Assembly (NCBI RefSeq): GCF_003334305.1
Contig: NZ_QOWS01000003.1
Source: Escherichia coli
GTDB lineage: Bacteria; Pseudomonadota; Gammaproteobacteria; Enterobacterales; Enterobacteriaceae
Reading direction: 5' to 3' (one strand)
DNA length: 64,000 nucleotides
Shown in pieces: positions 993-63,159 of the stretch; the stretch's first letter is position 1, and each line of letters opens with the position of its first letter. Below the pieces are notes generated by a model. The model made no database searches, had not been told where the DNA came from, and saw only the letters and a program-made list of their open reading frames with translations. The translations under genes were made by a program, and so were the position numbers.

Positions 993-998
993 AAGGGA

Positions 999-2184: not shown

Positions 2185-2213
2185 CCACAACGTTTTCCGC
2201 ATACCTCTTCAGT

Positions 2214-2298: not shown

Positions 2299-2314
2299 CA
2301 TCGTATGCAAATCG

Positions 2315-2339
2315 AGTCGCTCAAGGGCGGCTTTTTTTG
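2315..2339 (+). terminator. Rho-independent terminator after leuX
   Basis: Stem agtcgc / gcggct with a 6-nt loop followed by a run of seven T (2333-2339). Confidence 0.55.
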
Positions 2340-2499
2340 TGCCTGAAATCCAGTATCCGCAAGGCTTTCCTCGCTTTTTCACTCAACCTAAGTCAACCTG
2401 ATTCAATCTACATCAACTTACTGATGCGGGTACAACTGCGGGTATTTCCCGGTTCGATTATGTTTGTACCCACACAGGGCCCTTGAAAGGATACTCATC

Positions 2500-3764
2500 A
2501 TGGCTCTGAGTGATGTGAAGGTCCGTTCGGCTAAGCCGGAAGCAAAAGCCTATAAACTTACTGACGGTGAAGGCATGGTTTTGTTGGTCACCCTAATGGC
2601 TCCAAATACTGGCGACTTCGTTATCGTTTTGGCGGTAAGGAGAAGATGCTGGCGCTGGGGAAATACCCTGAAGTCTCGCTGGTCGATGCCAGAGGTCGCC
2701 GGGATGAAGCCCGTAAGTTGTTAGCTAACGGCGTCGATCCTAGTGAGAACAAGAAAGCTGTTAAGGTAGAGCATGAGCAAGAGGTGATAACGTTTGAAGT
2801 GGTAGCCAGAGAGTGGCACGCCAGCAATCAGAAGTGGTCTGCATCGCATAGCGCTCGTGTATTGAAAAGCCTCGAAGATAATCTCTTTGCTGCTATCGGT
2901 AAGCGGAACATTGCTGATCTGAAGACTCGGGATCTGCTTGTCCCCATCAAAGCGGTGGAGTCGTCTGGGCGTCTCGAAGTCGCTGCTCGTTTGCAGCAGC
3001 ATACTACCGCGATTATACGCTTTGCTGTACACAGTGGATTAATCGACTACAACCCCGCTCAAGAGATTGCTGGTGCGGTTGCTACGGCGAAAAGACAGCA
3101 TCGTGCTGCTCTGGAACTTAACCGCATTCCTGAATTGCTTCAACGCATCTATCACTATTCTGGCAGGCCGTTAACCCGACTGGCGGTTGAACTCACATTG
3201 TTAGTTTTCATCCGTTCAAGCGAGTTGCGTTTTGCTCGCTGGTCAGAAGTTGATTTTGATACTGCCATGTGGACGATTCCGGGAGAACGTGAGCCACTGG
3301 AGGGAGTTAAGCATTCTCAGCGTGGTTCGAAGATGCGGACTCCACATCTTGTACCCTTATCTCGACAAGCTCTCACCATTCTGGAAAAAATCAAAAGCAT
3401 GAGTGGAAACCGTGAGCTGATCTTCGTTGGTGATCACGATCCGCGTAAGCCAATGAGTGAGAATACGCTTAACAAGGCCTTGCGAGTGATGGGCTATGAC
3501 ACGAAAACGGAAGTGTGTGGACATGGTTTCAGGACGATGGCGTGTAGTTCTTTGATTGAATCGGGATTGTGGTCGAGGGATGCAGTAGAGCGGCAGATGA
3601 GTCATCAGGAACGTAGCTCAGTACGGGCGGCTTATATCCATAAGGCGGAACATCTTGGGGAGCGAATGTTGATGCTGCAGTGGTGGGCTGATTATCTGGA
3701 TGCGAATAGAATGGCGGCTATCACTCCATTTGACTATGCAAAGATTAATAGTTCTTTTCGATAA
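2500..3764 (+). pseudogene. intB: P4-family tyrosine integrase with an N-terminal frameshift; longest intact frame 2646-3764
   Basis: ATG at 2500 gives MALSDVKVRSAKPEAKAYKLTDGEGMVLLV and then leaves frame; the expected continuation HPNGSKYWRLRYRFGGKEKMLALGKYPEVSLVDARGRRDEARKLLANGVDPS is in the other frame joined at about nt 2589, consistent with a 1-bp deletion (gtcac where gtccac is expected). Position next to a tRNA 3' end is typical for P4-type integrases. Confidence 0.75.
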
Positions 3765-3820
3765 TTCTATCTAAGTATATGAATATTAACTGTTTTTTAA
3801 TTAAAGGCTTATAACTGAGA

Positions 3821-3854
3821 AGCCTCCGCCCTAATGGGGAGAGGCTTTTGTCTT
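3821..3854 (+). terminator. Possible terminator hairpin after the integrase gene
   Basis: agcctc / gaggct inverted repeat followed by tttgtctt; the loop is long (14 nt), so this is weak. Confidence 0.3.
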
Positions 3855-3965
3855 AACTCAATCAAGAAGGAAATCGTTATGTAAAACTTTATTTTTTTGT
3901 CCGGTATGTGAACGGAAGTGTTAAATATCCACTATGCCTTGTTCGCGCAATGGTCATCCTTTCAA

Positions 3966-5435
3966 TCAAATAACTCCAAGCTTTGCATACAATTCTTTTT
4001 TCTCTTTCATGCTGTTATCCAATGGTGCTACTCGCAATGCCGCTTTCAAATAAGCCGCAGCACCAGAGTAATCACGCATTTGCTCGCAAACTAAAATGAG
4101 TTGGCTTAACACATGGAACTTCATTGGAGTTGTTTGGTTTACTTTCTCCAATAGTACTCTTGCTTCAGAATATTTCGCTTCAAGGCCAAGGATAGATGAT
4201 TCTAAATACATGGTGGCCGCGTTTTCTGCTTCAGCTTGCTTTCGTTGCAACAGCCAGAAATTTGCTTGACTGATATTGCGTAACTGTAGGTTTGCCTTAA
4301 CTATCAACTCGAACAAAGCTGCTGGTTGAGTCAATTTACCCTCAAGTAAGATCGCTTTATTATCTTCTACAACTTTTTCAAAGTCGAATAAGCGATTGGC
4401 GCGATACAAGGCAATAAGTTGCTGATGTAAAGCTTGTAGATCTTTACTGCGGCTATACTCCTGCGACGCTAATTGAGCAGCTTTTTGGTAAGATTGATCG
4501 GACATTGCTTCAAGTACCGCACTTGACCAGTCCTGAGCAGGTTTAGTTTGAAAAACGGGAGCAATAGCACCAACTTTTAATTGCTTAGTGGCAGCAGAAT
4601 CAAATGCATGAATTAAGTCGGAAATAGTGGAAAAGCGATCCTCCGCTCGTTTTTGTAAACAAGTAAGAACCACTTGTTCCAGGTCCGTATGAATAGAGCT
4701 ATTAATCTCTGTCGGAAGCTTGAAAGGTGCGTGGCGCTGAACTTGTGCTGGCGTATCATGGGGCAGCTTTCCTGTCAGCAGCTGGTATAGCAAAACACCT
4801 AAGCTATAGATGTCGCCCAATAGTAGCTCTTCCAGGCTGCCTCTACGGCTATCGACGTTGGAGAACTCTGGGGCCGAATACAGCACAGTCCCGCCATTTT
4901 CACGGGTACGAACGTAAATTTCTTCTGGTAAAGCTGAGCTGCCAAAGTCCGTCAACTTCACCAGGTCCCGCTCTCCAACCAAAATGTTATGTGGCTTAAT
5001 ATCTCCATGAGATATTGGTACTGGTAATTCGGCCAAATAATGCACAGCACAGAGCACTTGACGATATATTCTGAACAACCGTTCATAGGTCTGGCCAAAA
5101 TTACGCTGCCTGTCATCGAGCTTTTGCGCCAGGGTTTGGCTGGGAAAATACTCCATTTCAATATAGAACCATTCATTATCTATACGGCCCATATCAAAAA
5201 TTTGCACAATATTTTCGTGCGGCTCGACGTTTAAAAGCTCTTTACCTTCGGCAAGCTGACGGTCTTCCCGAGTAATATCCTTAGGGATTTTTACTGCGAC
5301 AATTTTTCCATCTTTCAGGCGTTCCGCCCGCCATACCCAGCCATGGCTGCCATCACCAAGGCATTCAAGTAACAGGTATTTGTCACCAAGGCGTTTATTC
5401 GTCCCTGGCAAAAAATGTGCTGATTTTATATTCAC
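3966..5435 (-). CDS. Hanks-type Ser/Thr protein kinase with a C-terminal helical (TPR-like) domain
   Basis: 489-aa ORF with Gly-rich loop LGDGSHGW, catalytic lysine in VAVKIP, catalytic loop HGDIKPHN, DFG, SAPE and DIYSLGVLLYQLLTG; C-terminal half is helical and repeat-like. Last gene of the operon; its start overlaps the upstream gene stop by 4 nt. Confidence 0.88.
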   Translation of the reverse strand: MNIKSAHFLPGTNKRLGDKYLLLECLGDGSHGWVWRAERLKDGKIVAVKIPKDITREDRQLAEGKELLNVEPHENIVQIFDMGRIDNEWFYIEMEYFPSQTLAQKLDDRQRNFGQTYERLFRIYRQVLCAVHYLAELPVPISHGDIKPHNILVGERDLVKLTDFGSSALPEEIYVRTRENGGTVLYSAPEFSNVDSRRGSLEELLLGDIYSLGVLLYQLLTGKLPHDTPAQVQRHAPFKLPTEINSSIHTDLEQVVLTCLQKRAEDRFSTISDLIHAFDSAATKQLKVGAIAPVFQTKPAQDWSSAVLEAMSDQSYQKAAQLASQEYSRSKDLQALHQQLIALYRANRLFDFEKVVEDNKAILLEGKLTQPAALFELIVKANLQLRNISQANFWLLQRKQAEAENAATMYLESSILGLEAKYSEARVLLEKVNQTTPMKFHVLSQLILVCEQMRDYSGAAAYLKAALRVAPLDNSMKEKKELYAKLGVI

Positions 5436-5974
5436 ATCAACACCTCATAGTGAATTCTGTCCAAAACAATCATGTTCAGGTTTTTGATAAATAAAAAGCG
5501 ACTAAATACCACCTCAACATCAGGAGCGGCGATTACTTGGGTACCCGTGGACGAAGTAAAACCCATACGGCATATGTCTTTCAGTTTTTGAGTATCAGGT
5601 ACACCTACTAAGCCTTGGCTCCAGGCACTGAGGACCAGGGTTTTGGGGCAATGATTCCAGCGCTGTGCTGCTTCCAGTAAGTTTTTTAATTTTTCTTCCA
5701 GCTTTTGCTGCCCCTTCGCTGAACCATCAAAGCGTTCAAATTCGATTAAACACACAGGCGATGCAGAAGATTTATGAAACCAGCCCGAGTCAGAGCGAAT
5801 ATCAGCACCAAATGTCCCTGGAGCCGGGCATTCCACTACCGCCATAAATGACTGTTCATGCCCGAATGTATTCCAAACGCTACAGCCCAGGCTGTGGACC
5901 AATACATCCTGGTCCAATAGCTTACCGCTTGCTAAAAGTGGAAATGTCTCATTTACCCAGGCAACTTCAGGCAT
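5432..5974 (-). CDS. Hypothetical protein (about 180 aa), operon partner of the kinase
   Basis: ORF track 5432-6031; the first ATG is at 5974 (complement of 5972-5974), 7 nt after the HerA-like stop and preceded by AAGGTG. No recognisable motif. Confidence 0.7.
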   Translation of the reverse strand: MPEVAWVNETFPLLASGKLLDQDVLVHSLGCSVWNTFGHEQSFMAVVECPAPGTFGADIRSDSGWFHKSSASPVCLIEFERFDGSAKGQQKLEEKLKNLLEAAQRWNHCPKTLVLSAWSQGLVGVPDTQKLKDICRMGFTSSTGTQVIAAPDVEVVFSRFLFIKNLNMIVLDRIHYEVLM

Positions 5975-5981
5975 AGGCACC

Positions 5982-7667
5982 TTAGCCACTGAAAGAGCCC
6001 CAAACACGCAGTACCTCTGGTGATTCACCACCGTGAATTAATGCCTTACTACCAACTTTAACAAGCAGTGGTGCAGGGATTGAACGACCACACACCAAAG
6101 CTTCACCGGTTGATAAACTCGGGAGTTCCTCCAGATCAGCTTTGCTCACCATATCTGATGCTTTAGCTATAAATCGTTGATCGTCAGGGTTCTTTAAGCG
6201 CATCGTAATTAGCGTATTGCACTGAGAGGTCACATCTGAATCTAATTTCGATGGACGCTGGCTCACAATGCCAAATCCAACGCCAAATTTACGACCTTCA
6301 CCAGCGATCTTTTTAATAATGCGGTGACTGACTGCGTTGCCGCCGGCCGGGGCAAAATTATGACCCTCTTCGTAAATGATAAAGCATGGGCGCAGCGGGT
6401 CCGTTTTGCTCGAGGCTGCTTTTAATATTTCACTAGATAACAGTGCACAAATGACTTGCTTAGCGGTATCACTCAAACCTTGTAAGTCAACAACGACTAA
6501 ACGCCCCTGTTGATTGCTCGGGCGACCCACCATTTTGTAAATATCAGTTGGCTCAGCCATTGTTGCGCTGTAAAAACTTTTAGCTTCATTAAGCACACGT
6601 GAAAGCTTCATCGAGGCGACGGCGGCACTACGGCCTGATAACGCCTTCGCCTCAGCTTCAGAAAGGTCGTCCCACTCTTTTAACTCTTCAATACCATCAC
6701 CTAATAAGAAGCGTAGGCGGTTAATATCTCGTGGCTCAGTCTTATCTGCAGAGCGCCAATAACGAATTGCAACATCGAGTACTCGTTGCTGCGGTTCCGT
6801 TAAGCCAGGTAATATTTCAGCAATATCGTCCATTTCAAAATGGTCAAACTGAAGCGCTAATGGCGTATTCTTACTGGCGTATTTATGTTTAAAAGATTCA
6901 TGCTGCGGCGAGTAAACCTGAATACCTGCACCGGCGGCTTGCAGCTTTTCAAAGGTCTGTTTTATCAGTGGCAGTGCTTCTTGATCACGCTTATCGTCAG
7001 TGGCTTCTAAGAAGCTTGAGAATTGCAGATTACCGCCAGCGAGGGCTTTACCGTATTCACCATGTGGGTCAAATACTACTACCGTACCGTTATTAACCGC
7101 AACTAAACGCTCAATAATGCGGCCAACTGTATAAGACTTACCTGAACCCGTCATTGCCAGAACAGCCAAATGCTCAGTGACCAACTTGTTCACGTCAATA
7201 AAAACAGGAACTGTATTCTCACCTTTGTCGTAGCCTACTAAGTTACCTAAGTGCAAACTGGAGTGTTCATTAAATTCGTAAAAATCACTCAAAAACTGAA
7301 AATCGACGGTTTCAACAGCGGTACCCGGGTTAAGCGGGCGACGTGGAATTTTGATTTGACGAGTAACAGGATCGCGGTAACCAACCAGCTCGACCTGAGC
7401 AAACATATTCTCACCAGTTACATTCGCACCGGGCAAAAGCTCAAGCTCGGTTACACCATCGCCAAAGCCGGCGTTATAGAGCATATTAGTACGGCTTATC
7501 TTGGTCACTCGCCCCAGTACGGCGACTTGCCCCTCATCTTTGCGTTCCTGGTGCATAATGCGTACAAACTCACCACGGCGTACTGAAAACGAGTCTTGTA
7601 CAACCATAGTTAACTGACTGGCATCACCAGTGTTACCGACTAATTTACCTAAAACTTTATAAGCCAT
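5982..7667 (-). CDS. HerA/FtsK-superfamily P-loop ATPase (DUF87-like)
   Basis: 561 aa; Walker A LAMTGSGKSYT, then VVVFDPHGEY, Walker B-like FIIYEEGHNF and a C-terminal GVGFGIVSQRPSKLD segment typical of HerA-type ATPases. Confidence 0.82.
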   Translation of the reverse strand: MAYKVLGKLVGNTGDASQLTMVVQDSFSVRRGEFVRIMHQERKDEGQVAVLGRVTKISRTNMLYNAGFGDGVTELELLPGANVTGENMFAQVELVGYRDPVTRQIKIPRRPLNPGTAVETVDFQFLSDFYEFNEHSSLHLGNLVGYDKGENTVPVFIDVNKLVTEHLAVLAMTGSGKSYTVGRIIERLVAVNNGTVVVFDPHGEYGKALAGGNLQFSSFLEATDDKRDQEALPLIKQTFEKLQAAGAGIQVYSPQHESFKHKYASKNTPLALQFDHFEMDDIAEILPGLTEPQQRVLDVAIRYWRSADKTEPRDINRLRFLLGDGIEELKEWDDLSEAEAKALSGRSAAVASMKLSRVLNEAKSFYSATMAEPTDIYKMVGRPSNQQGRLVVVDLQGLSDTAKQVICALLSSEILKAASSKTDPLRPCFIIYEEGHNFAPAGGNAVSHRIIKKIAGEGRKFGVGFGIVSQRPSKLDSDVTSQCNTLITMRLKNPDDQRFIAKASDMVSKADLEELPSLSTGEALVCGRSIPAPLLVKVGSKALIHGGESPEVLRVWGSFSG

Positions 7668-8814
7668 TATTCAATCCCTCATCGAGGCCTGCCAACCACC
7701 CTGCCTCAATATCATTATTCTTTAGTGCCTGGTGTAAACCCTGGCGATAAAACGTAGCAAATTTAGGTAAAATACCAAGCTGTTGATAACCAAGTAATTG
7801 TGGCAACGGCATTGCATTACCTTTGTTTTGCATATCCAGCACCATCAGGCGAGAGGCAACTAAATCGAGATCAGCACTTTTCCATTCTGGTTCGTCACCC
7901 GCTAATTGCACCATTTTTATCTGTCCACCTCGGGCACTACGGAAGTGAAAACCAATTAGACCTTGCTTAGCTTCAATATTGGGTTCAATGCGCTTTTCTT
8001 GTTCAGACAAACGAAATGCGATGGTGCGCGAATAGTTGCCTAAAATGCCATTGATAAATCGCAAATCTCCCACGCCAACCAAACTTTCATCCAGTCCTTC
8101 CAGATTTTGCATCAACTCTTTAGAAAACCCATCAGATGCTAAAATTTGTTTGCGTCCTTGTTCGGTACGTAAATCTTGTTTGGCGATACTTACAATGGCA
8201 CTAAAGCGCTCAGCCAAAATGCTCGCAAGTACTACACCATTTTGATTCCAGGGAAAAATTCTGGAGCGATGGTTTTGCCAAAAAGTTTCTATCACTTGTC
8301 TGGTTTTTTCGTACTCTTGTTTATGACGGACATTTCTCTCCAGCGGAGCCATATCCCGTGCTAAAAACAACGGCGTATCCAGCAAAATTAAATCGCCAGG
8401 CTCATAACCTAAAAGTTTTTTCTCAACTAACTGATAAGCCTGACGAATTTCAATTAAATCAAGCCGTTTACGCTGAGCTTCAAAATCAATATCATCCAGT
8501 TCTGATACCGAGTCGCTACCCACCGTGCTGACTTTATTGTCATCTATTAACAAATCTGTGCGCACTGCTGCACTGGCATAAATAAAACCACCCAATACCT
8601 TGTCTAAGCACGATTTAGTCGCAATACCGGCTACGCGTAAATTAACAATTGTGGGCTTGGGGACCGCTTTCACTAAGCCAGCATCACGGAATAGCGGCGC
8701 CACTTGCTCAATATCACGGACCTGTTTAAGCAAGCGTCCTGCACTTCCCGGTAAGCGAAGCTGGCTATCGATGGCGAGCGATTGCGCTAAATTCATCGTT
8801 TTGTTCTCATTCAT
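7657..8814 (-). CDS. Hypothetical protein (about 386 aa)
   Basis: ATG at 8814 (MNENKTMNLAQ...) lies 2 nt after the stop of the upstream gene; its 3' end overlaps the HerA-like start by 11 nt. No confident motif. Confidence 0.75.
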   Translation of the reverse strand: MNENKTMNLAQSLAIDSQLRLPGSAGRLLKQVRDIEQVAPLFRDAGLVKAVPKPTIVNLRVAGIATKSCLDKVLGGFIYASAAVRTDLLIDDNKVSTVGSDSVSELDDIDFEAQRKRLDLIEIRQAYQLVEKKLLGYEPGDLILLDTPLFLARDMAPLERNVRHKQEYEKTRQVIETFWQNHRSRIFPWNQNGVVLASILAERFSAIVSIAKQDLRTEQGRKQILASDGFSKELMQNLEGLDESLVGVGDLRFINGILGNYSRTIAFRLSEQEKRIEPNIEAKQGLIGFHFRSARGGQIKMVQLAGDEPEWKSADLDLVASRLMVLDMQNKGNAMPLPQLLGYQQLGILPKFATFYRQGLHQALKNNDIEAGWLAGLDEGLNNGL

Positions 8815-8816
8815 GC

Positions 8817-9665
8817 TTATAGCGTTCCTGTGTGTAGCTGCTCGCCAAGTAATGGGGCATAAGCCCAATATTGCGAGGCTTGTAGGCATGTTTTACCGGT
8901 AGCTGTTATGCCCGCGTCGTCGATAAAATCGTGCTGCCGCAACATCTCACCCCGCTTGACAATATCAAGGCTATTAACATCAAACATCAGCTTAACCGCA
9001 TTATGCTCAGACAACGCTTGTAAGTTCATGCCACCGCCAGCGTAGAGTAATAGCAATACAACTAGATCGTGCTTATCTGGCGTGTAGTCAGTTGATGGCG
9101 CTTTAGGTTCGATTATTCGTTCAGCAATGCCTGCATGGTCCACAAACCAATTCAACCAGCTCACCAGGAGCTCACTATGATCGAGTAAAGTCAGCGACCA
9201 CAAAGGTAACGTGGTAAAGGCTAATAGCCCACTGTTGCTGTGTTTTCGTATGTAGCGGGTATGCACTACATCACCGGCCTGGTGCTGGTAGCGATCTGCG
9301 CTGCCAGTAAAGCCAGCAATAGCCTGGTCTGTTTCACTGGCTAGCAAAGCGGTTAGCCCCGGTTCCTGCCCCCTCAAGCTCGCTGGTACTAACTGCCAAT
9401 CCAGTGGATAGGGCAATTGCGCTAATAAGGTAAATTGTTCTGCTTTCAGGTTTATTACCAAAGCGGCACAACCTGCCTGCATAGCCCAGTGATACAGGTG
9501 CTGCATAGTATTAGCGTCAGTCAACTCTTCTGCTTGCACTATTAACAAACCGCTGGCTGGCGGCGAGCTAATCCAATCCTTCATTAAGGGGGTAGCCCCC
9601 GCAACAGTTTGCAAAAAACGGCCTTTACGATTACTGGCCAGTGCCGCAGATAAATAACGACTCAT
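8817..9665 (-). CDS. Hypothetical protein (about 282 aa)
   Basis: ATG at 9665 (MSRYLSAAL...), 10 nt after the stop of the 1428-aa gene; the longer frame to 9692 needs a non-ATG start. No recognisable motif. Confidence 0.72.
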   Translation of the reverse strand: MSRYLSAALASNRKGRFLQTVAGATPLMKDWISSPPASGLLIVQAEELTDANTMQHLYHWAMQAGCAALVINLKAEQFTLLAQLPYPLDWQLVPASLRGQEPGLTALLASETDQAIAGFTGSADRYQHQAGDVVHTRYIRKHSNSGLLAFTTLPLWSLTLLDHSELLVSWLNWFVDHAGIAERIIEPKAPSTDYTPDKHDLVVLLLLYAGGGMNLQALSEHNAVKLMFDVNSLDIVKRGEMLRQHDFIDDAGITATGKTCLQASQYWAYAPLLGEQLHTGTL

Positions 9666-9675
9666 CGCGTCACCT

Positions 9676-15260: not shown

Positions 15261-15262
15261 CT

Positions 15263-16741
15263 TTACTCTTCAGCCTCCGCTTGCGCCGCCTCTTCCAGCA
15301 AACTGTATAACTCATCCACATCGCTAAATAGCGGTGTGGCACCTTCAATGGCATAACCCTCAGCGCTCAGTTTGCTTAAAATCGCTTGATCAAAGCTGCT
15401 GTCGCCATCTTCCAGGGCTTGTTGGGCCTGGATTAGTTGTTGCTCAGTCAGTTGGCCTTCGATTAATGACTCAACTAGAGTTTTGGCAGATGCTGTTAAC
15501 TTTTTTGCATATGCTGCCGTAGTAACGGCTAGTCTCAGCTTACTTCCTATTTCTCTATTCTTCGCTATGTCAATCGGAATCAGAATATTTAACAGGTTTT
15601 CTGAAGTCACTTTTGGTACAACGCTGCCAGTAGTCACACCTTTCCAACACGGAAAGTGTTTATCCAGGAACCTACAAATAGACTCAATATCATATTCATC
15701 TTTTACCTTTAAAACCCAAACATGGTTGTTTGCCCAAAACTTTCCATCAGCTACATTTGCACAGCCAATAGAGCCATCTTGCGCAATAATCAGATATTTA
15801 CCGTTGAAATTGAATTCGGTATGAGTATCTATTGGACCTGATGCGCCATAGTAAAAATATGGTCCGGGTACTCTGTCTTCCGATTTAATAGGGTCGCCAC
15901 ATTTGCATTTACTAATGAAATTAGATAGTTTTGATGAATTCCTAAAGGTCATTTGACTATCGGCCGCACGTGCAAACTCAGGAGCTAAAGACACTGCTGA
16001 TAATACCTGTTGTTTCATTCTTCTAGGTTTCAATGTTAATGAATCAACAAGGTTGAAGTGAAATAAATCTTTAATTTTTCTATCAGCCATTCCTTCAAGT
16101 CGTTTCGCCCAAGCGCGTAACTGCTCGGCTTGGCGAACTTTATCCCCGATGTATTTTTGGGCTAGAGGTAAAACTTTAGGAACCGCTAGCGAGCGGACAC
16201 TTGGGAAGTCAATTGCAGGGCGAGTTGCGCCATATGCTTCCTTCCAGATCGCTACTTGTCCGGTTTTGCTATTCAAATATGCCACCAAGAAATAGGCGTC
16301 AACTTTTTTGGGATCGGGCTTGAATCTGACTGAGTGCTGACTAATGTTGGCCGGTAGATGTTTAGCTGACACAACAGCCGATTTACCAAATTTTGCACCA
16401 GTAATCGTAAGTAAAACGTCGCCATCCACTAATCGGCTGCGCTTTAATTTTTCATCATCTTCATCGTTAATAAAAACAGCTTCTTCAGCTTGCAAGAACA
16501 TTTCTTCAACTTCAGAAGTGCGATAAAACTTAACACGGCCTTTTTCTAAATAATTTGCTCCTAAAGGTGTTGCGCCACTAGCCACCCCGCGCTTTGAATC
16601 AATTACCGCTTCTAGGGGCAAAGCACCTAGGTTGTCTTTTATCTTATTAATTTGTCTTTCAAATCGCGGTTGATAGTGCCAAGGATCAATCCGCCTTTCA
16701 GACAATTGTTCGGGTGTTCTTTTAAAAATAGTTGCCATCAC
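15263..16741 (-). CDS. Type I restriction-modification specificity subunit-like protein (HsdS-like, two target-recognition domains)
   Basis: Two repeated TRD-end segments (GATRPAIDFPSVRSLAVPKVLPLAQ and GVTTGSVVPKVTSENLLNILIPIDIAKNREIG) plus a helical C-terminus, resembling HsdS. Start is GTG at 16741 or ATG at 16738, overlapping the methyltransferase stop. Confidence 0.75.
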   Translation of the reverse strand: MMATIFKRTPEQLSERRIDPWHYQPRFERQINKIKDNLGALPLEAVIDSKRGVASGATPLGANYLEKGRVKFYRTSEVEEMFLQAEEAVFINDEDDEKLKRSRLVDGDVLLTITGAKFGKSAVVSAKHLPANISQHSVRFKPDPKKVDAYFLVAYLNSKTGQVAIWKEAYGATRPAIDFPSVRSLAVPKVLPLAQKYIGDKVRQAEQLRAWAKRLEGMADRKIKDLFHFNLVDSLTLKPRRMKQQVLSAVSLAPEFARAADSQMTFRNSSKLSNFISKCKCGDPIKSEDRVPGPYFYYGASGPIDTHTEFNFNGKYLIIAQDGSIGCANVADGKFWANNHVWVLKVKDEYDIESICRFLDKHFPCWKGVTTGSVVPKVTSENLLNILIPIDIAKNREIGSKLRLAVTTAAYAKKLTASAKTLVESLIEGQLTEQQLIQAQQALEDGDSSFDQAILSKLSAEGYAIEGATPLFSDVDELYSLLEEAAQAEAEE

Positions 16742-18885
16742 TCACCCCGCTTATAAGCCGATACAATCTTATCCAGATCGTTTGCGACACCGGCGTTATA
16801 GTCTTCGATATTGTTTTTCACCACATAACCCAATGTTTCAGCCACTGCCATAAACACGTCGGTTTGTGGCTCGGGCAAAAATTGCTCTGGCTGGTTGGGG
16901 TTAGCATGGCGTTTTTGTAAATACAAAATCGAGGTTTTGGCCCCCGTACCGGAGAGTTTAAAGCAGTCGCTCGGCAATGAAATTACTGCTTTTACAATAG
17001 CTTTACCGCCAACAAACTCGCCGGTTTTTTCGTCTTTTTTCCCCATAATGTACTCACGGACATAACGGTCGCCGGAGTTACATAAAATACCATCAGGCAG
17101 CACTATTAACAGGCGGCCACCGGGTTTAAGCAGTTGCAGGCAGCGGTCGATAAAAAGTACTGCTGGGTCAATAGTGGCACCTACCGGTTGCCAGTTGCCC
17201 TTGCTATCGGGCTTGCTGCCCAGCGCGAGCCCTGCGGTTGTAGGCTGCAGGCTGTAAAACGGCTTTTTATCAGTCCCGCCCGTTCTGCGCAAATCGGTAC
17301 GGTAGCCCGCCCATTTAGGCTCGCCGTTTTCATCCAGCTCTAAATCACCGATATCCTGCCACTTCATTTTCACGTGGTCATACCAGGCGTTGTAGCTATC
17401 AACGACTTTTTTGGTCGGACGAAAACCACCGAGCACTTGCTCCATATTGGCTTCGTAATTGGCTTTTGAGTTTTGACCATTTTTGCCTTTATCAAATTTA
17501 GGCGTACCGAACGGCGGGTTGGTGCAAATCAGGTCAAAGCTATTCGGCTTCAGAGCGTTAGTAGTGAGTGAGTTGTCGGTATAAAAAATCTGCGCTTTGG
17601 GGGCACCTTGCAATGCCATATTCACGCGGGCCAGCATTACCATGCGTGGTGCAGCATCGGCACCGGTAAATGCACAGTCGCGTAATTTTTGTTTCAATGA
17701 TTCTTTTTTATCGTCGGCCAGCACCAGCTTAAAATCGATCCATTTATCAATCTGGCTTAACGCCACCGAGCCAAAACCAAAGGAGCCACAGGTGGGGTCG
17801 CAGAAACGAAAATCGCCATTGGCTAAGCGCGATCGCATTTCATCGTCATCGTCGATGTCGTGCATAGCAATTTCTAGCATGGCCTGTTTTACTGGGTTTG
17901 GTGTTAAATAAACGCCAAGGCCACCTTTGGATTCAAAGTTAGCGCGTAGGAATACATCAAACACTCTGCCTAGTAAATCTCCTGACACATCAGCCAACGT
18001 GCCGTGTTCTTTCGCGATTTTACCGTCGTTGGTTTTTACCGGACCCAGGTTTTGTATTGCTTCCAGCAAATCCTGATAGTTTTTCGCAACAGACAGTCGC
18101 AGGTGTGTTTCTTTACTAAAGATGGGGTTACGTGAGCCATCATCTGAGATCACAACGTAGTTTTCGTGGCTTTTAAATTCCTCAAAGGCGGCTTTGATTT
18201 GGGCAACGGCTTTATCGCCGTGGCTCTCCACATATTGCCAATCAAAGACATCACGAAAACGCAGGGTATTTCCCTCATCATCTTTAAAGGTAAGGTCTTC
18301 ATCGTGATGCAGGCGGAAAGTTTCTAAAAACAGAAGCTTAGCTACTTCTTCAATAATGTCGTTCTTGTCGTTTACCTTGTCTTTGGTAACGCGATAAACA
18401 TTTTCATGGAAGGCATCAAATCGCTGCATTAAGCGTGTATAAACACGCATCGACCAGCGAAAGGTTGGATCACGCTCCATGCGATCAAAGCTACGTAATT
18501 CTTCCAGACCAGGCAGGGTATCTGCACCGTGGGTACCGTCAGATCCATCGGCACCGAACAAGGCCAAAATACGTTGGTTCAAGCCATCGTCCACAACGGC
18601 ATATACTGGCCAGTCACCTTCGATATCACTTAACAGCTGATAGGCTAAATCATCAAACTTTGCAGTGTCAGCGGCGTATTCCCAATGGCCTTCTGTCAGC
18701 GCAATCAACATGACTGGTGGCGTTAAGTTGCCTTCAACCAGGCCTTGAATGAGACCAGCCTTGGCGAATTCATGCTCGGGTAATTCGACCAATGGCTGAG
18801 TAAACTCGGAGTGCTGTTTGACCAGTTTATTGAACAGTGCTTCTAGCTGCTGTTGCGGGTCTTGTTTTTTTGCTTCTTTTGCCAT
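16738..18885 (-). CDS. N6-adenine DNA methyltransferase (HsdM-like) with an extra N-terminal region of about 350 aa
   Basis: 715 aa; AdoMet motif I-like DPTCGSFGFG and catalytic motif IV NPPFG; the domain order resembles the type I M subunit. Confidence 0.85.
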   Translation of the reverse strand: MAKEAKKQDPQQQLEALFNKLVKQHSEFTQPLVELPEHEFAKAGLIQGLVEGNLTPPVMLIALTEGHWEYAADTAKFDDLAYQLLSDIEGDWPVYAVVDDGLNQRILALFGADGSDGTHGADTLPGLEELRSFDRMERDPTFRWSMRVYTRLMQRFDAFHENVYRVTKDKVNDKNDIIEEVAKLLFLETFRLHHDEDLTFKDDEGNTLRFRDVFDWQYVESHGDKAVAQIKAAFEEFKSHENYVVISDDGSRNPIFSKETHLRLSVAKNYQDLLEAIQNLGPVKTNDGKIAKEHGTLADVSGDLLGRVFDVFLRANFESKGGLGVYLTPNPVKQAMLEIAMHDIDDDDEMRSRLANGDFRFCDPTCGSFGFGSVALSQIDKWIDFKLVLADDKKESLKQKLRDCAFTGADAAPRMVMLARVNMALQGAPKAQIFYTDNSLTTNALKPNSFDLICTNPPFGTPKFDKGKNGQNSKANYEANMEQVLGGFRPTKKVVDSYNAWYDHVKMKWQDIGDLELDENGEPKWAGYRTDLRRTGGTDKKPFYSLQPTTAGLALGSKPDSKGNWQPVGATIDPAVLFIDRCLQLLKPGGRLLIVLPDGILCNSGDRYVREYIMGKKDEKTGEFVGGKAIVKAVISLPSDCFKLSGTGAKTSILYLQKRHANPNQPEQFLPEPQTDVFMAVAETLGYVVKNNIEDYNAGVANDLDKIVSAYKRGE

Positions 18886-18935
18886 GATGTTTTCTAAAAT
18901 CCTTTAATACAGCCAATGGTTACTACAAATGCCGG

Positions 18936-19322
18936 CTAATTTATCAGTACCAGCAAGGGGCCTTTAATCTCTATCTGCGCGTGCTTCTGTGCCAGTTTGC
19001 GTATCTGCTGTTCACTGGTCGTAATACCAGCAGGGAGCTTTTTCAGTACTTGTGCAAGGGGCATGCGCCCACCAGCTTGATGCAACAATGATACCAAATG
19101 TGCCGCGATATCAGGTATAACCTGGTACGTTGCCGTTGTGGGCCCTTTTAGATGATTACTTTGAGGCAATGAGGCAAGCCATAGCGAAACTTGAGACTGG
19201 CTAAAGCCAAGTGTTTGCCAGAGGGTTTGGTTCTCATTAAATACAACGGCGGCGCTTCTGGGAGTTGCTGTTTGCTGAGTTATTAGTTGTTCCAGGCTTT
19301 GTCGCTGGTATTCATGGGTCAT
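18936..19322 (-). CDS. Small hypothetical protein (128 aa), possibly helix-turn-helix
   Basis: ATGA overlap with the McrC-like gene stop; a 50-nt gap precedes the methyltransferase gene. The segment TLWQTLGFSQSQVSLWLAS loosely resembles an XRE-type HTH (weak). Confidence 0.65.
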   Translation of the reverse strand: MTHEYQRQSLEQLITQQTATPRSAAVVFNENQTLWQTLGFSQSQVSLWLASLPQSNHLKGPTTATYQVIPDIAAHLVSLLHQAGGRMPLAQVLKKLPAGITTSEQQIRKLAQKHAQIEIKGPLLVLIN

Positions 19323-20662
19323 CTCATGCCTCCACTATAGGATACTGAAGCAGCCATCCGATCCAGTTTGGGGCTCATTGTACAGGACACGTCATTCGGC
19401 CACATCATCCTCTCACCGCGTTTTGCCATTATCCGGTATGGCACAACCCATAATTTTAAAGTCTCCGAGAAAGCAAAATGCTGCGCTATAGGTTGGCTAA
19501 AGTCATCATGCGCAGGGTAAATCAGATACATTTCGCCATTCCCACCAAGATATTTTTGTCCGTAGGCAAACATTTGATAGAAGTCAGCTTGTGCCAGTCC
19601 ATAGAGTGATTTTGTCTGCTGGCTGCTATTCACCAGCTTCCATTTTGTATCCATCACCATTTCGGTTTGAACTGGTTTGTGTGATTGAATCAGCAAGTCG
19701 GGGCGAAGCTTAAAGCAATCTTTAAGTCCATGCTTTACCAAAGAATAAGTTGCTGCTTGAGGTAAAACTTTGAGGTGAGGTGGTAACTCGTCGGGTAGGG
19801 TCTGTGCCACAAAGGATTCAAATACCGCTTCCATAGGGAACAAAAGTGATATCGCTTTGGTGTTTCCCTGCAAAGCACTCGGGCTCATTCCCCTCAGGAT
19901 CAATTGCGCCCATGCCATTGGCTCGTTGTAATGAGCCATACCACGCTCGAGGCGTAAGTTGTTTATATCACGTTCAATATCCCGGCTAAGTGGAATACCG
20001 TCAAACGCAAAACGCAGTTCGTAAAGCCAGCGTTGATTATCTGATGACAGCTGCAGACTAAGAAGCTTATCTAGTGCGGAGTGTAAGAGCCGATTGGCTG
20101 CACAATCAGGCATGTAGTCATCATAATCGACACAAAACTTATGGCGATTCACCGCGTTATGTCGCAGCTGTGCAGAAAGCATCAGCTTGCCCTTCATAAA
20201 AGCCAGATTACCTTGCTTGCTCACATAGTCGGAGCGTAAACCCTGTTTAAGCAATTGGCTGACGCTATGCAAAAACTGGTTAATAAAAATCTCAAGCAAA
20301 GGCATACGCTGAGCCTGAAGAGTGGCTTGCTGGGTTTGAATATGTCGGAACCCAGGCAGATGGCTTAGCATCGTCAGCAATGTTTGACGTGCATTAGCCG
20401 CTGTGAGGTTTTTACCAACCTTGGGCAGTATCTCAAGCTGGAAACCGTGAGGTGTTGAAAGCATCCCTGCGTAGTTTTGAACCTGAAGCAATTTGAAGCC
20501 TGAGCGAGAGGTGAGTTTGAGGAACTGGCTCCCTTGATTACTTGCCAGGCTAAGCGCTTCTAAATAATTAAAGACCTGTGGAGGCACCGGTTTTGCGCCA
20601 ACTGAAGCCGCTTTTCCACTCCCCAAGAGGTCATATTCAAAAACGGAGATAACTTCACCCAT
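19319..20662 (-). CDS. McrC-like PD-(D/E)xK nuclease
   Basis: 447 aa; RPDLLI ... MDTKWK arrangement typical of the McrC catalytic core; overlaps the upstream McrB-like gene by 8 nt, as in mcrBC. Confidence 0.8.
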   Translation of the reverse strand: MGEVISVFEYDLLGSGKAASVGAKPVPPQVFNYLEALSLASNQGSQFLKLTSRSGFKLLQVQNYAGMLSTPHGFQLEILPKVGKNLTAANARQTLLTMLSHLPGFRHIQTQQATLQAQRMPLLEIFINQFLHSVSQLLKQGLRSDYVSKQGNLAFMKGKLMLSAQLRHNAVNRHKFCVDYDDYMPDCAANRLLHSALDKLLSLQLSSDNQRWLYELRFAFDGIPLSRDIERDINNLRLERGMAHYNEPMAWAQLILRGMSPSALQGNTKAISLLFPMEAVFESFVAQTLPDELPPHLKVLPQAATYSLVKHGLKDCFKLRPDLLIQSHKPVQTEMVMDTKWKLVNSSQQTKSLYGLAQADFYQMFAYGQKYLGGNGEMYLIYPAHDDFSQPIAQHFAFSETLKLWVVPYRIMAKRGERMMWPNDVSCTMSPKLDRMAASVSYSGGMR

Positions 20663-22730
20663 GATTTACTGCCTGCTCATCAAGGGGAGTCTGTTGGGGC
20701 TGATAAATTGAACGATAAGCCTGTGGAATATTCCAGATCTCTTGATCGAAATCTTTGAGCTCATAAGCTGTTGATTGCTGATCATGGCGTCGTAAACCAT
20801 GGTTGTTACCAAAAAGCGTATCGAGATCGTCGGTTTTCTCAATCACGAATTGCAGGTTGTCGTCTTGCTTTTGATTGTCTGCCAGCACCAACCGGATCTT
20901 GTTCCAGTCATCGAAAAAGTATTCCTGTAAAAGCGGAATGATCTTTTTCTGGAATGCGATCTTCAATTGTTTAAACGCAGCTTCTTCATCACCGGCATCG
21001 AGTGCATTTTTTACCGGCATAAAGAACGCATGCCCCAGCGTATGTTCACGATCGTAAAGAGCCTCGATGCGGCTATTGAGTTTCTCTAACAACGACTCGA
21101 GCTCTATGCCTTTCACCTTAGCTTCACTCAGTAAAGAGAGATCAGGCATCATTTCGACAAAGTCAAAGCGACGGCGCAAAGCCGTGTCCATCAGAGCTAA
21201 AGAACGGTCCGCTGTATTCATGGCTCCGATGATATCGACATTGCCGGGTACGCTGAAGTGATCACCGCTATAAGCCAGTTGCAGGCTCATCGCATTGGGC
21301 ATGCCTGCACGCTTGTCTACTTCAATGAGTGAGATTAGTTCACCAAAGATCTTGGATATGTTACCGCGATTGATCTCATCAATGAAAATGGCGTAGCGAT
21401 GTCCTGGATCGGCATTCGCACGTTGGCAAAGGCGCATAAAGATACCCGGCTCAATGGGATAAGAGATATTGCCACTCTCGTCAGAGCGAGCGCGTATACC
21501 TTCAATAAATTCTTCATAGCCGTAAGATTGGTGGAACGTAACCACCGCAAAACGCTGGATGGCTTCGGCAGATTTAGGGCCACGTTTAAGTTCGGCGTAG
21601 AGCTCTACCAAATCCTCCACTTGCTCGAGCTGTGAATCAACTAGAAACCATTCGCTGTTATCTGTTTTGTTAAATACGGCAGGCTCACGCCGATTCTTAT
21701 AATCAACGGTTAACGACTCGGGAACTGTATAGGATTGCAAAGCTGCCCAGGCAGTATTCGATAGATTGCCATTACGACCGTTTAATAATGCCTTACGTTG
21801 AAACCACATATGTTCAATAATTTGGCGAACTTTCGCTCGTTTCCCAAGATCGAGCAGCACCAGCGTTATAACCTGCATCCAGTTCAACGATTCAAGGCGA
21901 GAATCCAGCCAGGCATCACGATCAGCGGGAACAGCATGAGAAGTGTACTCTTTCATTTTTTGCTGCAACCTGAAGGTCTTGCCAGTGCCAGGGGGGCCAA
22001 AGAAGATCACGTTAGTTGGTGAATGTAGGATGATCTTGTTCTCGATGGGCTCACTGCGGGTTATGGATGTAGTGCTAGCTACTTTCTCCTGCTTTTGTTC
22101 ATTATCGCGTTCACGGAGCAATTCATAGAGATGCCAGATGGCCATATTCACATAATAAGGATCTGTATCAGGAGATTGGGCGTGTATGGCTTGTTTCAAT
22201 TCATAGTTTTTCTGTAACCAATTTCCGGTCAGTACCAAACCGAGATGGAAGTGCTGATTTAAGAATTCTGCTGCTTTATTAAAAGCATTCTCATCCACAG
22301 TACTGGTGTAGTTTTCTGGCGAGAACGCGGCAAAGACGCGATTTCTCAAACTCCAATACATACGCTTGAGAAGTCCGTTTTCTTTAGCTTGTTGAAGTGC
22401 ATTGCCAACATATTGGTAAGTTTCTTCATCCGGCTGTTGCCGAATTCGTTCAGTTAGTTCTCTAAGCAGTGGCAGGCTTTGCTGATATTCTGCTAAGGAT
22501 GGAACGCCCTGGCGAATACTTGCAATGCCGTTGTCACGCTCATACCAAAGCTGTTTGACCAGACCATCTGTTGCAGGCTCAGCAAAAGTTGAGGTTTGCT
22601 GTAGCAAAGTCGTAAATGCACGGTATCGCTGATACCATCTGGAAGCTGTGTAATTTTTATCTTTCGCCAGGGCATCAATCAATTCACTAATCGTTAGCCT
22701 ACCTGCTTCGACACTATCTACAAGAGTCAT
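20655..22730 (-). CDS. McrB-like AAA+ NTPase with a distinct N-terminal domain of about 230 aa
   Basis: 691 aa; Walker A GPPGTGKTF, Walker B FIDEINRGN and the McrB-type ALRRRFDF motif. First gene of the operon; GAGGAA ribosome-binding site 8 nt upstream of the ATG. Confidence 0.85.
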   Translation of the reverse strand: MTLVDSVEAGRLTISELIDALAKDKNYTASRWYQRYRAFTTLLQQTSTFAEPATDGLVKQLWYERDNGIASIRQGVPSLAEYQQSLPLLRELTERIRQQPDEETYQYVGNALQQAKENGLLKRMYWSLRNRVFAAFSPENYTSTVDENAFNKAAEFLNQHFHLGLVLTGNWLQKNYELKQAIHAQSPDTDPYYVNMAIWHLYELLRERDNEQKQEKVASTTSITRSEPIENKIILHSPTNVIFFGPPGTGKTFRLQQKMKEYTSHAVPADRDAWLDSRLESLNWMQVITLVLLDLGKRAKVRQIIEHMWFQRKALLNGRNGNLSNTAWAALQSYTVPESLTVDYKNRREPAVFNKTDNSEWFLVDSQLEQVEDLVELYAELKRGPKSAEAIQRFAVVTFHQSYGYEEFIEGIRARSDESGNISYPIEPGIFMRLCQRANADPGHRYAIFIDEINRGNISKIFGELISLIEVDKRAGMPNAMSLQLAYSGDHFSVPGNVDIIGAMNTADRSLALMDTALRRRFDFVEMMPDLSLLSEAKVKGIELESLLEKLNSRIEALYDREHTLGHAFFMPVKNALDAGDEEAAFKQLKIAFQKKIIPLLQEYFFDDWNKIRLVLADNQKQDDNLQFVIEKTDDLDTLFGNNHGLRRHDQQSTAYELKDFDQEIWNIPQAYRSIYQPQQTPLDEQAVNHG

Positions 22731-22899
22731 CGTGACTTTTCCTCTGTTGTGACATTACTTATTTTTTAATTAATATGAGGTATTCTAACTATATTGAGTT
22801 AATCGTTGTGACAAGTGCCTGTTATATATACAACTATCTGTTAACTCAGCTCTAATTTAAATACAATGTAAGGTTGTAGGGTGAATGCTGTTATCAACC
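22731..22899 (-). promoter_or_regulatory. AT-rich intergenic region, probable promoter of the 12-gene operon
   Basis: 169 bp between the HNH gene stop and the McrB-like start; candidate -35 TTGTCA (complement of 22809-22814) and -10 TATAGT (complement of 22788-22793) with a short 15-bp spacer, so the hexamer call is weak. Confidence 0.35.
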
Positions 22900-23772
22900 T
22901 CACCCCCTAAAAACCTCTTTCCGATGCCACTCTACAAACACCTCATAAGGGTAATTTTTACGCACCTGCGGCAACGCAATAGTTTTCCCGTCAAAATCCC
23001 AGAATAATCTCTCAACGATCCCTCCGCCGTTTACCGCATCTGATACCAGTACCCGCATATTTTCATCCAGGCCAATCGATCCTTTATCAAAGGCTTTATG
23101 GTGAATTGCGCAAAGCGCCAGGCCATTAGGAATTTCACAAGGACCTCCTTGCTGTTTCCATTTTATATGCGCCGCTTCCAACGCTACGGTGGTGTCGTCG
23201 TGGCGCATATTAAAGCCACATATCGCGCACTGGTAGTTATAAGCGCGTAATACATTTTTGCGAAATAAAGGGTCGCGCTGTTTACGGATTTGCTGGAGAT
23301 CAAAACCCAGCTCGTCAGCAATTTCTTCCTGAATACTCTCGGTGAAGTGCGCTTCGAGTATCTGTTGCGCCAGAGTATTGATGAGTTTTTTATTGCCGGT
23401 TACCAGGGCGTAGTGCTGTTCATCGAAACCGCCTGCAACGTGGTATTCGTTCAGTTCCTTCACTGGCGGTTGTCGGCTGCTCCCTGCTGTTGAGCAAAGC
23501 TCGGCATTGTGTAATTGCCAGAATCCGTCGCCTTGTAATCGCCAGAACGGCATATCAGGTCGGTAATGTGAACGCTGTGGCCCAAAACGTTCCAGTAAAC
23601 TGTGCAGAGGTTCGTAGATTTCCGATCCATAATCGAAAAGGCGTGGATGTCCATTCAGGTATCCCGCTAATACGTATAGCAATAACAATGGCTTATGCGG
23701 CGCGCGCTGTTCACCTTTGTGCCAGATTTTTATGTTGGCAATTGCCTGCTGTAGCGATTTACTGGAAGCCAT
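22900..23772 (-). CDS. HNH endonuclease with an uncharacterised N-terminal domain (candidate modification-dependent restriction enzyme)
   Basis: C-terminal HNH motif CAICGF ... AAHIKWKQQGGPCEIPNGLALCAIHHKAFDKG. Preferred start is the ATG at 23772 (MASSKSL), preceded by AGGGA; the ORF track extends to 23829 with a TTG start. Confidence 0.78.
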   Translation of the reverse strand: MASSKSLQQAIANIKIWHKGEQRAPHKPLLLLYVLAGYLNGHPRLFDYGSEIYEPLHSLLERFGPQRSHYRPDMPFWRLQGDGFWQLHNAELCSTAGSSRQPPVKELNEYHVAGGFDEQHYALVTGNKKLINTLAQQILEAHFTESIQEEIADELGFDLQQIRKQRDPLFRKNVLRAYNYQCAICGFNMRHDDTTVALEAAHIKWKQQGGPCEIPNGLALCAIHHKAFDKGSIGLDENMRVLVSDAVNGGGIVERLFWDFDGKTIALPQVRKNYPYEVFVEWHRKEVFRG

Positions 23773-23983
23773 TGATATCCCTGGCAGTGAAATAATTGCG
23801 ATCATGCTCGCAAATTTTCGGCTGTTCAAGCCTGCAAGTGAAGATATATTACTTTGATCTCATTTGTTTTTTTGCTGCCTGTGTACCCTAATTGCCATGC
23901 GATGTTGCACCGACGCAAACCACCTTTTACGCCGGAGGAGTTAAAAGCGTTGATGGATGCGAATAAATCAAATTAATGAACGC

Positions 23984-62115: not shown

Positions 62116-62130
62116 TTAAGCCCGAAAGCC

Positions 62131-63149: not shown

Positions 63150-63159
63150 GCTCTCTCCA

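Follow-up and report, generated by a model that had tools for sequence, protein, structure and literature searches.

The 64,000-nt stretch of Escherichia coli DNA analysed here (contig NZ_QOWS01000003.1 of assembly GCF_003334305.1, referred to as the window) carries a genomic island of ~21.7 kb between the tRNA gene leuX and nanS. The island consists of a plus-strand integrase homologue followed by 13 open reading frames (ORFs), all on the minus strand. Ten of these ORFs (positions 3966-19322) form a cassette that is one conserved collinear multi-gene system, equivalent to madl2 to madl11 of a putative system of Pseudomonas aeruginosa termed 'MADS-like'. The other three ORFs encode an McrBC-like pair and an endonuclease with SBD and HNH domains. 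The first-pass annotation of the window, made from the sequence alone, took the island genes as a loose collection. The McrBC-like and HNH genes are indeed separate modules, but the ten cassette genes belong together. The region 2100-24100 is 100% identical to E. coli strain A7, and the RefSeq annotation of A7 was used as a cross-check for the gene calls. Prevalence is given relative to 5426 complete E. coli genomes.

The cassette encodes, in order, a small protein, an N6-adenine methyltransferase, an HsdS-type specificity (S) subunit, proteins of 433, 1428 and 282 aa, a predicted NurA-like protein, HerA, a predicted BamHI-like nuclease and a kinase. Gene junctions overlap or have spacings of 10 bp or less, save for one 50-bp gap. 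The stop codon of the mcrC-like gene overlaps the start of the first cassette gene by 4 bp, and the McrBC pair and the cassette are packed as a 12-gene unit.

A profile of the 1428-aa protein was scanned against one genome per species, and 77 loci were found. The same genes are present in the same order in every one of these loci except where the contig ends. The family pattern is (small protein), methyltransferase, S, ~400 aa, ~1430 aa, ~275 aa, ~380 aa, HerA of 561 aa, ~185 aa and a kinase of ~490 aa. The loci are from Gamma-, Beta-, Alpha- and Deltaproteobacteria, Cyanobacteria, Planctomycetota, Acidobacteriota, Verrucomicrobiota, Fibrobacter, Myxococcales, Firmicutes and Chloroflexi, i.e., at least nine phyla overall. 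All nine genes from methyltransferase to kinase are detected by tblastn in 51 of the 77 loci, and this is the complete-locus set. Median identity to the E. coli proteins in this set is highest for HerA (84%), followed by the methyltransferase (65%), the 385-aa NurA-like protein (60%), the kinase (56%), the 1428-aa protein (49%), the 180-aa BamHI-like protein (48%) and the 128-aa small protein (37%). It is lowest for the 433-aa protein (33%), the S subunit (31%) and the 282-aa protein (30%). The conservation of gene order in the 51 complete loci across phyla, together with the tight or overlapping junctions, identifies the ten genes as a single system.

There are some local departures from the pattern. 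In Firmicutes loci tblastn loses the two fast-evolving genes, and ORFs of matching size sit at their positions. In Firmicutes versions of the cassette (L070, positions 7864-9980) two ORFs of ~350 aa are found where the single 433-aa gene stands elsewhere. In some loci (L066, L069 and L075) the NurA-like gene is separated from herA by an additional 1-2 kb.

The cassette is found in 230 of the 5426 E. coli genomes (4%), always on the chromosome and in single copy. It is absent from 72,556 plasmids (PLSDB) and from 50,697 phage genomes (INPHARED), and homologues of the 1428-aa gene are present in three of 2.9 million viral contigs (IMG/VR; L083-L085). Carriage by plasmids or phages was rejected on these counts. 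A RefSeq chromosome labelled 'strain DH5alpha' (NZ_CM135829.1) has the 1428-aa gene at 99.9% identity. K-12 does not have the cassette, and the label or the assembly is therefore suspect.

The methylation-associated defence system MADS, which has eight genes (mad1-8) and has been validated by experiment, was described in P. aeruginosa SMC4386 (Maestri et al., bioRxiv 10.1101/2023.03.30.534895). The Supplementary Notes of that preprint also describe MADS-like, an 11-gene putative system present in ten P. aeruginosa islands. Its predicted components are a WYL protein (madl1), a methyltransferase (madl3), an S subunit (madl4), an ATPase (madl6), a HerA-like helicase (madl9) and a kinase (madl11), and four proteins are without prediction (bioRxiv 10.1101/2023.03.30.534895). 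The P. aeruginosa locus L087 encodes a BrxR-WYL protein of 304 aa, a protein of 132 aa, a methyltransferase of 707 aa, an S subunit of 506 aa, proteins of 440, 1428, 275 and 380 aa, HerA of 561 aa, a protein of 192 aa and a kinase of 490 aa. This order and these sizes fit the published description of madl1 to madl11, and the E. coli cassette therefore corresponds to madl2-madl11. The P. aeruginosa proteins fall in a 90%-identity cluster of the 1428-aa family whose representative, P0057, has 56% identity to the E. coli protein. The flanks of the P. aeruginosa MADS-like operon (L087 and L088; flank noted at positions 1-3529) encode a SACS/NOV_C-domain protein of ~1600 aa on one side, and two tyrosine integrases and phage genes on the other.

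Four of the cassette proteins are assigned by sequence. The methyltransferase (madl3 equivalent, 16738-18885) is a 715-aa N6-adenine methyltransferase of the HsdM family. It matches the PADLOC MTase_I model PDLC03023 over its full length with 1577 bits, and has a long N-terminal extension. The NPPF motif is present in 66 of 66 loci. The NCBIfam MAD2 model gives 111.6 bits against a cut-off of 720. The adjoining S subunit (madl4 equivalent, 15263-16738) has two target-recognition domains (TRDs) and a PADLOC Specificity_I match of 7.7e-164. In Pantoea and Rosenbergiella its identity falls to 32-34%, while the genes around it keep 87-99%. This divergence amid conserved neighbours implies recent swapping of target-recognition domains. 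No island protein matches an HsdR or REase_I model in PADLOC or NCBIfam.

The 561-aa HerA/FtsK-type hexameric DNA translocase (madl9 equivalent, 5982-7667) is the most conserved protein of the cassette, with 60-99% identity across all loci. It matches PADLOC HerA at 1.2e-56 and mad8 at 6.6e-26, and NCBIfam HerA at 6e-59 (under the cut-off), and its homologues carry Pfam DUF87. The Walker A motif GSGKS is found in 59 of 69 loci and the Walker B motif hhh(F/Y)EE(G/A)H in all 69. The last cassette gene (madl11 equivalent, 3966-5435) encodes a 489-aa Hanks-type Ser/Thr kinase. The best match is PADLOC mad6 (1.2e-45), and there is also a match to PD-T4-6. NCBIfam scores are all far under the cut-offs, e.g., 116.9 bits against 460 for MADS6. 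The motifs HxD-KP-N, DFG and VAxK are kept in 67-68 of 68 loci, and the C-terminal region is helical or TPR-like.

The remaining six proteins, of 128, 433, 1428, 282, 385 and 180 aa, are unannotated. They were searched singly and as profiles of 51-72 homologues, and no significant match was found in Pfam, NCBIfam, PADLOC, PHROGs or PDB sequences. Matches to Pfam 'Serglycin' were discarded as spurious; they fell on the GS linkers of concatenated small-protein queries. Structure prediction with AlphaFold2 (AF2) was applied to the two best-conserved of the six, the 385-aa and 180-aa proteins.

The 385-aa protein (madl8 equivalent, 7657-8814) is encoded directly upstream of herA, with an overlap of 11 bp. 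The AF2 model has a pLDDT of 84.3 and a pTM of 0.82. In a Foldseek comparison with the PDB the top ten matches are all NurA proteins (2ygk_A, E = 2e-11; 9x1n), with EndoV, PIWI and RNase H next in rank. Closest in structure are NurA of S. solfataricus and P. furiosus and the HerA-NurA complex of T. kodakarensis (9x1n). The model thus suggests a NurA-like protein with an RNase H fold. D87, D107/D108, D146 and E277 are conserved and H290 is invariant, and several acidic and His residues show 93-100% conservation.

The 180-aa protein (madl10 equivalent, 5432-5974) has a predicted alpha-beta-beta-beta-alpha-beta core of the BamHI/OkrAI branch of PD-(D/E)xK nucleases, i.e., a restriction-endonuclease fold. 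A putative active site of the BamHI-like form E...D...ExE is made up of E48, D62, E78 and E80, and the E/D/ExE set is invariant in 70 of 70 loci. The protein is a candidate BamHI-like nuclease on the basis of this model.

The largest protein, of 1428 aa (madl6 equivalent, 9676-13962), has an N-terminal Walker A motif (GRGKS) and a Walker B motif (VVLDELE), followed by ~1000 aa that are largely helical. All 71 loci compared keep Walker A. The E. coli protein itself matches KAP_NTPase at E = 0.12-0.54, and 19 of 34 N-terminal fragments of the family match at E of 0.1 or less, the best at 1.4e-4. The 'KAP-type NTPase' of the first-pass annotation is thus plausible but weakly matched, and the N-terminal part may be described as a divergent KAP-like P-loop NTPase, an assignment that is plausible but not proven. 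The family numbers over 450 homologues, each labelled hypothetical and none with a recorded Pfam domain. Its length is near-constant, at ~1428 aa among the 120 best homologues.

The fast-evolving 282-aa protein (madl7 equivalent, 8817-9665) shows a faint winged-helix signal in its C-terminal part, where the profile matches MarR-type regulators, eS10 and eS19 in the PDB at E ~0.14. The 433-aa protein (madl5 equivalent, 13959-15260), also fast-evolving, has no match in any library, nor with a 54-sequence profile. The 128-aa protein (madl2 equivalent, 18936-19322) is the product of the first cassette gene, and its homologues in P. veronii (37% identity, 3e-22) and Desulfonema (28%, 5e-15) are encoded in the same place. 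Such homologues head the cassette in 39 loci, and the gene is therefore assigned to the cassette and not to McrBC. The protein may be a winged-helix adaptor or regulator.

The island begins at the 3' end of leuX (tRNA-Leu(CAA), positions 2214-2298, plus strand), which is identified by ARAGORN and by the Rfam tRNA model (59.4 bits). Comparison with K-12 MG1655 was by MAFFT alignments at both island ends. Identity to K-12 runs through the CCA end of leuX (2298) and diverges from position 2299; on the right side ~99% identity resumes at ~23976, at the 3' end of nanS. These limits agree with those first proposed, 2299 and ~23980, as does the different cargo of K-12, where the same interval is occupied by KpLE2 with the fec, sgc and yjh genes and IS elements. 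The left junction is sharp, but the right end is not clean. It is a decayed junction (23773-23983) recognised from the K-12 alignment, the A7 RefSeq annotation and the lack of a leuX repeat, and consists of the upstream region of the HNH gene, ~85% common to K-12, and a short plus-strand fragment of an HNH gene (23872-23976). The adjacent nanS (23984-24964) is an intact ORF of 326 codons in the window; the RefSeq annotation of A7 lists it as incomplete and missing the C-terminus. The GC content of the island is 0.465 compared with 0.54 in the left flank (ahr-leuX). The whole island is present in 207 of the 5426 E. coli genomes. It is therefore accessory, and its genes are not conserved core genes of this locus.

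The integrase homologue (2500-3764, plus strand) is of the P4 type, as had been read from the sequence along with the 13 minus-strand genes, but it is a pseudogene. The NCBIfam PRK09692 integrase domain is matched at 2.6e-62, and nucleotide identity to the K-12 paralogue intB is ~75%. Relative to the intB frame the sequence is one base short near position 2545, which introduces stops in the translation, and an internal ORF is left at 2646-3764. The gene is tagged 'frameshifted' in the RefSeq annotation of the identical strain A7. The first-pass annotation had suggested a search near 23830-23980 for a repeat of the leuX 3' end, which would mark an attR; no second copy (23 nt, three or fewer mismatches) is present anywhere in the 64-kb window, and a search for long direct repeats found no meaningful repeat that spans the island. 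The properties of a tRNA-associated island, i.e., insertion at a tRNA 3' end, an adjacent integrase, variable presence and atypical GC content, are all seen; flanking att repeats and an intact integrase are lacking. Because the integrase is frameshifted and there is no attR, the island looks immobilised, or fixed, in the window.

The interval nanS-yjgB (ahr) with tRNA-Leu-CAA has been described as a dedicated defence hotspot (#37), occupied in 462 of 475 genomes (Hochhauser et al. 2023, PMC10121019). A defence island between leuX and nanS is therefore expected and not new. The content agrees with this, as the first-pass annotation had proposed: all assignable genes belong to restriction or defence families, none is metabolic or conjugative, and the McrB/McrC, HsdM/HsdS, HNH, HerA and Ser/Thr kinase calls all hold. 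The module nearest nanS (module 1, 22900-23772, minus strand) encodes an SBD-HNH Type IV endonuclease. The product scores 436.8 bits with NCBIfam NF045808 ('phosphorothioated DNA-binding restriction endonuclease'), compared with a curated cut-off of 180. The N-terminal domain matches the sulfur-binding domain (SBD) of ScoMcrA (PDB 5zmo, 7e-08), and the C-terminal domain matches the TagI HNH domain (PDB) and Pfam HNH_2 (2.8e-09). By sequence it is a member of the ScoMcrA/SprMcrA-type SBD-HNH family, and the enzyme should cut incoming DNA that is phosphorothioate-modified. The gene is intact in 1707 of the 5426 E. coli genomes (31%), and traces are present in 4870. K-12 has a decayed 5' part of the gene between yjhR and nanS, with ~85-89% nucleotide identity and a 73-bp deletion. 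This remnant implies that the nanS-side end of the island predates the present cargo.

Module 2 (19319-22730) is an McrBC pair by sequence. The 691-aa McrB-like AAA+ GTPase subunit (20655-22730, minus strand) matches Pfam AAA_5, NCBIfam McrB (3.2e-43) and, in the PDB, McrB of T. gammatolerans (5.7e-55) and of E. coli (6.2e-40). The 447-aa McrC-like nuclease subunit (19319-20662, minus strand) matches Pfam McrBC PF10117 (2.2e-95) and NCBIfam McrC (4.6e-27), and an RPD...DTK motif is readable in its sequence. The two genes are side by side with an overlap of 8 bp. The McrB-like protein differs from known McrB in having an N-terminal reader domain of ~230 aa of no assigned family, and an insertion after Walker A in the AAA+ domain. 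From these family matches the module is a putative modification-dependent, GTP-driven McrBC-like nuclease.

The McrBC-like pair is present in 1015 of the 5426 E. coli genomes (19%), compared with 230 for the cassette. In E. coli H105 a 95%-identical McrBC pair at leuX (15329-23350 of the locus) adjoins an Eco31I-family Type IIS restriction-modification (R-M) system. This system, which consists of two methyltransferases and an endonuclease, is in place of the ten-gene cassette. The pair is therefore independent of the cassette, and the position beside mcrC behaves as an exchange slot for methylation-based systems. The build of hotspot #37 can be described as follows: nearest nanS is an old and often decayed phosphorothioate-dependent nuclease, then comes an McrBC pair that is widely shared, and beside McrC there is an exchangeable slot, filled by an Eco31I-type R-M system in one strain and by the ten-gene cassette in another. 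The nested prevalence of these units points to cargo exchange by recombination within a persistent hotspot and not to repeated integration of a whole element. Taken jointly with the immobilised island and with the mechanism proposed below for the cassette (module 3), it is probable that the island represents a stack of three independent modules directed against mobile genetic elements. The island, the hotspot and the McrBC and SBD-HNH modules are ordinary or already known, and the cassette is the part of interest.

In K-12 the position between yjiS and yjiA holds the 'immigration control region' (mcrBC-hsdRMS-mrr; hotspot #36). In the window this position has an 846-aa ORF (59575-62115), annotated in A7 RefSeq as penicillin G acylase. 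An Rpn-family gene (56284-57228) is located upstream, between mdtM and yjiR (window region 56284-63233). McrBC-like and HsdMS-like genes were seen in the leuX island and nowhere else in the 64 kb.

The cassette probably has a role in defence. The absence of HsdR, together with the presence of a methyltransferase-S pair, a small endonuclease and a translocase-nuclease pair, makes an R-M-like reading the simplest. The HsdM-like methyltransferase and the swappable HsdS would mark a bipartite site on host DNA with N6-methyladenine (m6A). The same methyltransferase-S complex, at unmethylated sites on invading DNA, would license effectors that replace the missing HsdR. The small BamHI-like nuclease may make the first cut, and the HerA hexamer with the NurA-like protein would thread the DNA from that break and degrade it. 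Switch and regulator would be the KAP-like NTPase and the Ser/Thr kinase, and the fast-evolving 433-aa and 282-aa proteins would be adaptors or sensors. The place of the BrxR/WYL regulator is taken by the McrBC pair in E. coli and in Enterobacterales related to it. We tentatively propose that the cassette may represent a distinct R-M-like class, in which HsdR has been exchanged for HerA-NurA resection and a BamHI-like enzyme, gated by the KAP-like NTPase and the kinase, and in which the McrBC or BrxR at the head would provide an integral second line against phages that evade the first through methylation. The particular order of events, i.e., mark, cut and degrade, is less likely than not.

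Several points weigh against this proposal. The order of events and the roles of the kinase and the NTPase are pure inference. Strand 1 of the NurA-like protein reads (A/S)-G-I and has no conserved Asp where NurA has a catalytic Asp; its activity is therefore uncertain, and it may be catalytically altered or only structural. The 128-, 433- and 282-aa proteins and ~1000 aa of the 1428-aa protein have no family match, and scans for promoters and terminators gave nothing above the shuffled background. In MADS, deletion of the S gene alone is reported to be lethal (bioRxiv 10.1101/2023.03.30.534895), which hints at a regulation more complex than that of a simple R-M system. No experimental report on the cassette or on MADS-like was found in the searchable literature, and the defence role therefore rests on gene content, context and analogy. 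No papers that name the RefSeq protein accessions of the cassette were found.

The same lethality also bears on the main rival explanation, since it suggests a self-toxic effector arm. If the cassette works by abortive infection or in a BREX-like way, self would still be marked by the methyltransferase and S subunit, and the kinase (as Stk2, PD-T4-6 and PglW) and NTPase would shut down the cell or block phage replication when triggered by unmethylated DNA or a phage protein. The nuclease-fold proteins would then be structural or indiscriminate, in keeping with the missing strand-1 Asp of the NurA-like protein, and the best PADLOC matches of the kinase are all to defence kinases (mad6, PD-T4-6, MkoA and PglW). 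However, structural or indiscriminate proteins are difficult to reconcile with a BamHI-type catalytic set that is invariant in every locus compared, with the strong constraint on HerA, and with the acidic and His residues retained in the NurA-like protein. Nor is there a PglX, PglY, PglZ or BrxC-type component in the island (PADLOC, NCBIfam). This explanation is considered unlikely.

Two other explanations concern whether the cassette is one system, and whether it is for defence at all. Defence genes commonly cluster, HerA-effector pairs and single kinases are self-contained elsewhere (PADLOC families), and the McrBC neighbour is demonstrably independent. The cassette might by analogy be two or three co-travelling systems, namely an orphan methyltransferase-S pair, a HerA-NurA-nuclease set and a stand-alone kinase. 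The strict gene order and overlapping junctions in complete loci from distant phyla make this highly improbable, as do the 77 loci, none of which has a sub-part only, except at contig ends, and the absence of an HsdR to go with the methyltransferase-S pair. The cassette might also be a DNA-processing remnant of a mobile element (replication, segregation or end resection) with an orphan methyltransferase. Archaeal HerA-NurA is a repair and resection machine, and HerA/FtsK proteins function in segregation and conjugation as well (PMC10853773). Against this, the cassette is missing from the plasmid and phage collections and almost so from viral contigs, it is linked to no replication, conjugation or structural genes, the hotspot is almost always occupied by defence systems (PMC10121019), and the S subunit diversifies in the manner of R-M specificity genes. 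A function other than defence is the least probable of these explanations.

MADS-like was previously named only in preprint supplementary notes, and the cassette is a member of it that resides in E. coli. New here are its occurrence at a defined place on the chromosome in ~4% of complete E. coli genomes, its gene-for-gene conservation across at least nine bacterial phyla, the natural variants with McrBC or BrxR at the head, and the model-based assignment of a HerA-NurA-like pair and a BamHI-like nuclease. If the R-M-like reading is correct, this would be the first archaeal-type HerA-NurA pair that acts as executioner of an epigenetically targeted defence. The mechanism is now directly testable in E. 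coli with standard coliphage collections, and there are concrete catalytic residues to mutate.

In comparison with known systems, the cassette is similar to Type I R-M in having an HsdM-family gamma-class m6A methyltransferase with NPPF, an HsdS with two TRDs and hypervariability at the level of the TRDs. It differs in that HsdR, a superfamily 2 (SF2) translocase-nuclease, is absent, seven other genes are obligatorily linked, and the methyltransferase has 715 aa with the long N-terminal extension. The resemblance to archaeal HerA-NurA is that herA adjoins and overlaps a gene for a predicted NurA-fold protein. The cassette is bacterial, however, is set in a defence island and is without Mre11-Rad50; the 385-aa protein has no detectable sequence similarity to NurA, and the strand-1 Asp is not conserved. 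DndFGH/Dpt, Sir2-HerA and DUF4297-HerA likewise combine a HerA/FtsK motor with nucleases, NTPases and fast-evolving DNA-binding proteins (Rakesh, Aravind and Krishnan 2024, PMC10853773). None of these HerA/FtsK capture systems combines HsdM/HsdS, a NurA-like protein, a kinase and the 1428-aa protein (PMC10853773), and no DndF, DndG, DndH, Sir2 or Orc/Cdc6 is found in the island by PADLOC or NCBIfam. Of BREX type 2/Pgl, PglW is matched in part by the kinase domain, at 66.7 bits where the cut-off is 990. The architectures in the literature differ from that of the cassette, and assignment to a described HerA/FtsK capture or BREX-related system was rejected.

MADS and the cassette both have an N6-adenine methyltransferase, an HsdS-like subunit, a Ser/Thr kinase and a HerA-type ATPase in one operon, and in MADS discrimination of self from non-self by methylation has been demonstrated (bioRxiv 10.1101/2023.03.30.534895). 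Similarity to MAD2, MAD5, MAD6 and MAD8, although below threshold, links the cassette to MADS. For MAD2, MAD5 and MAD6 the E. coli proteins score 4-6 fold under the NCBIfam cut-offs. Eight other HerA models score higher than PADLOC mad8, and there is no NCBIfam MADS8 match. No island protein matches MAD1, MAD3 (AbiEii/OLD-Toprim), MAD4 (DUF4276) or MAD7 (DptG/DndG-like; none even at E of 10 or less). MAD6, MAD7 and MAD8 are mandatory in the detection model of the MADS authors. With MAD7, MAD3 and MAD4 absent and the other scores far under the cut-offs, identification as MADS proper was rejected. In their place the E. coli cassette has the predicted NurA-like protein, the candidate BamHI-like nuclease and the giant KAP-like protein.

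The closest relative is MADS-like itself, where gene order and protein sizes in E. coli match those of P. aeruginosa from madl2 to madl11. The difference is at the head of the operon. The window is without the madl1 BrxR/WYL regulator and has the McrBC pair instead, an arrangement that is also present in Erwinia, Rosenbergiella, Ewingella and Pantoea. Two of the four MADS-like proteins left without prediction in the preprint are assigned here, from structural models, as a NurA-like protein and a BamHI-like nuclease.

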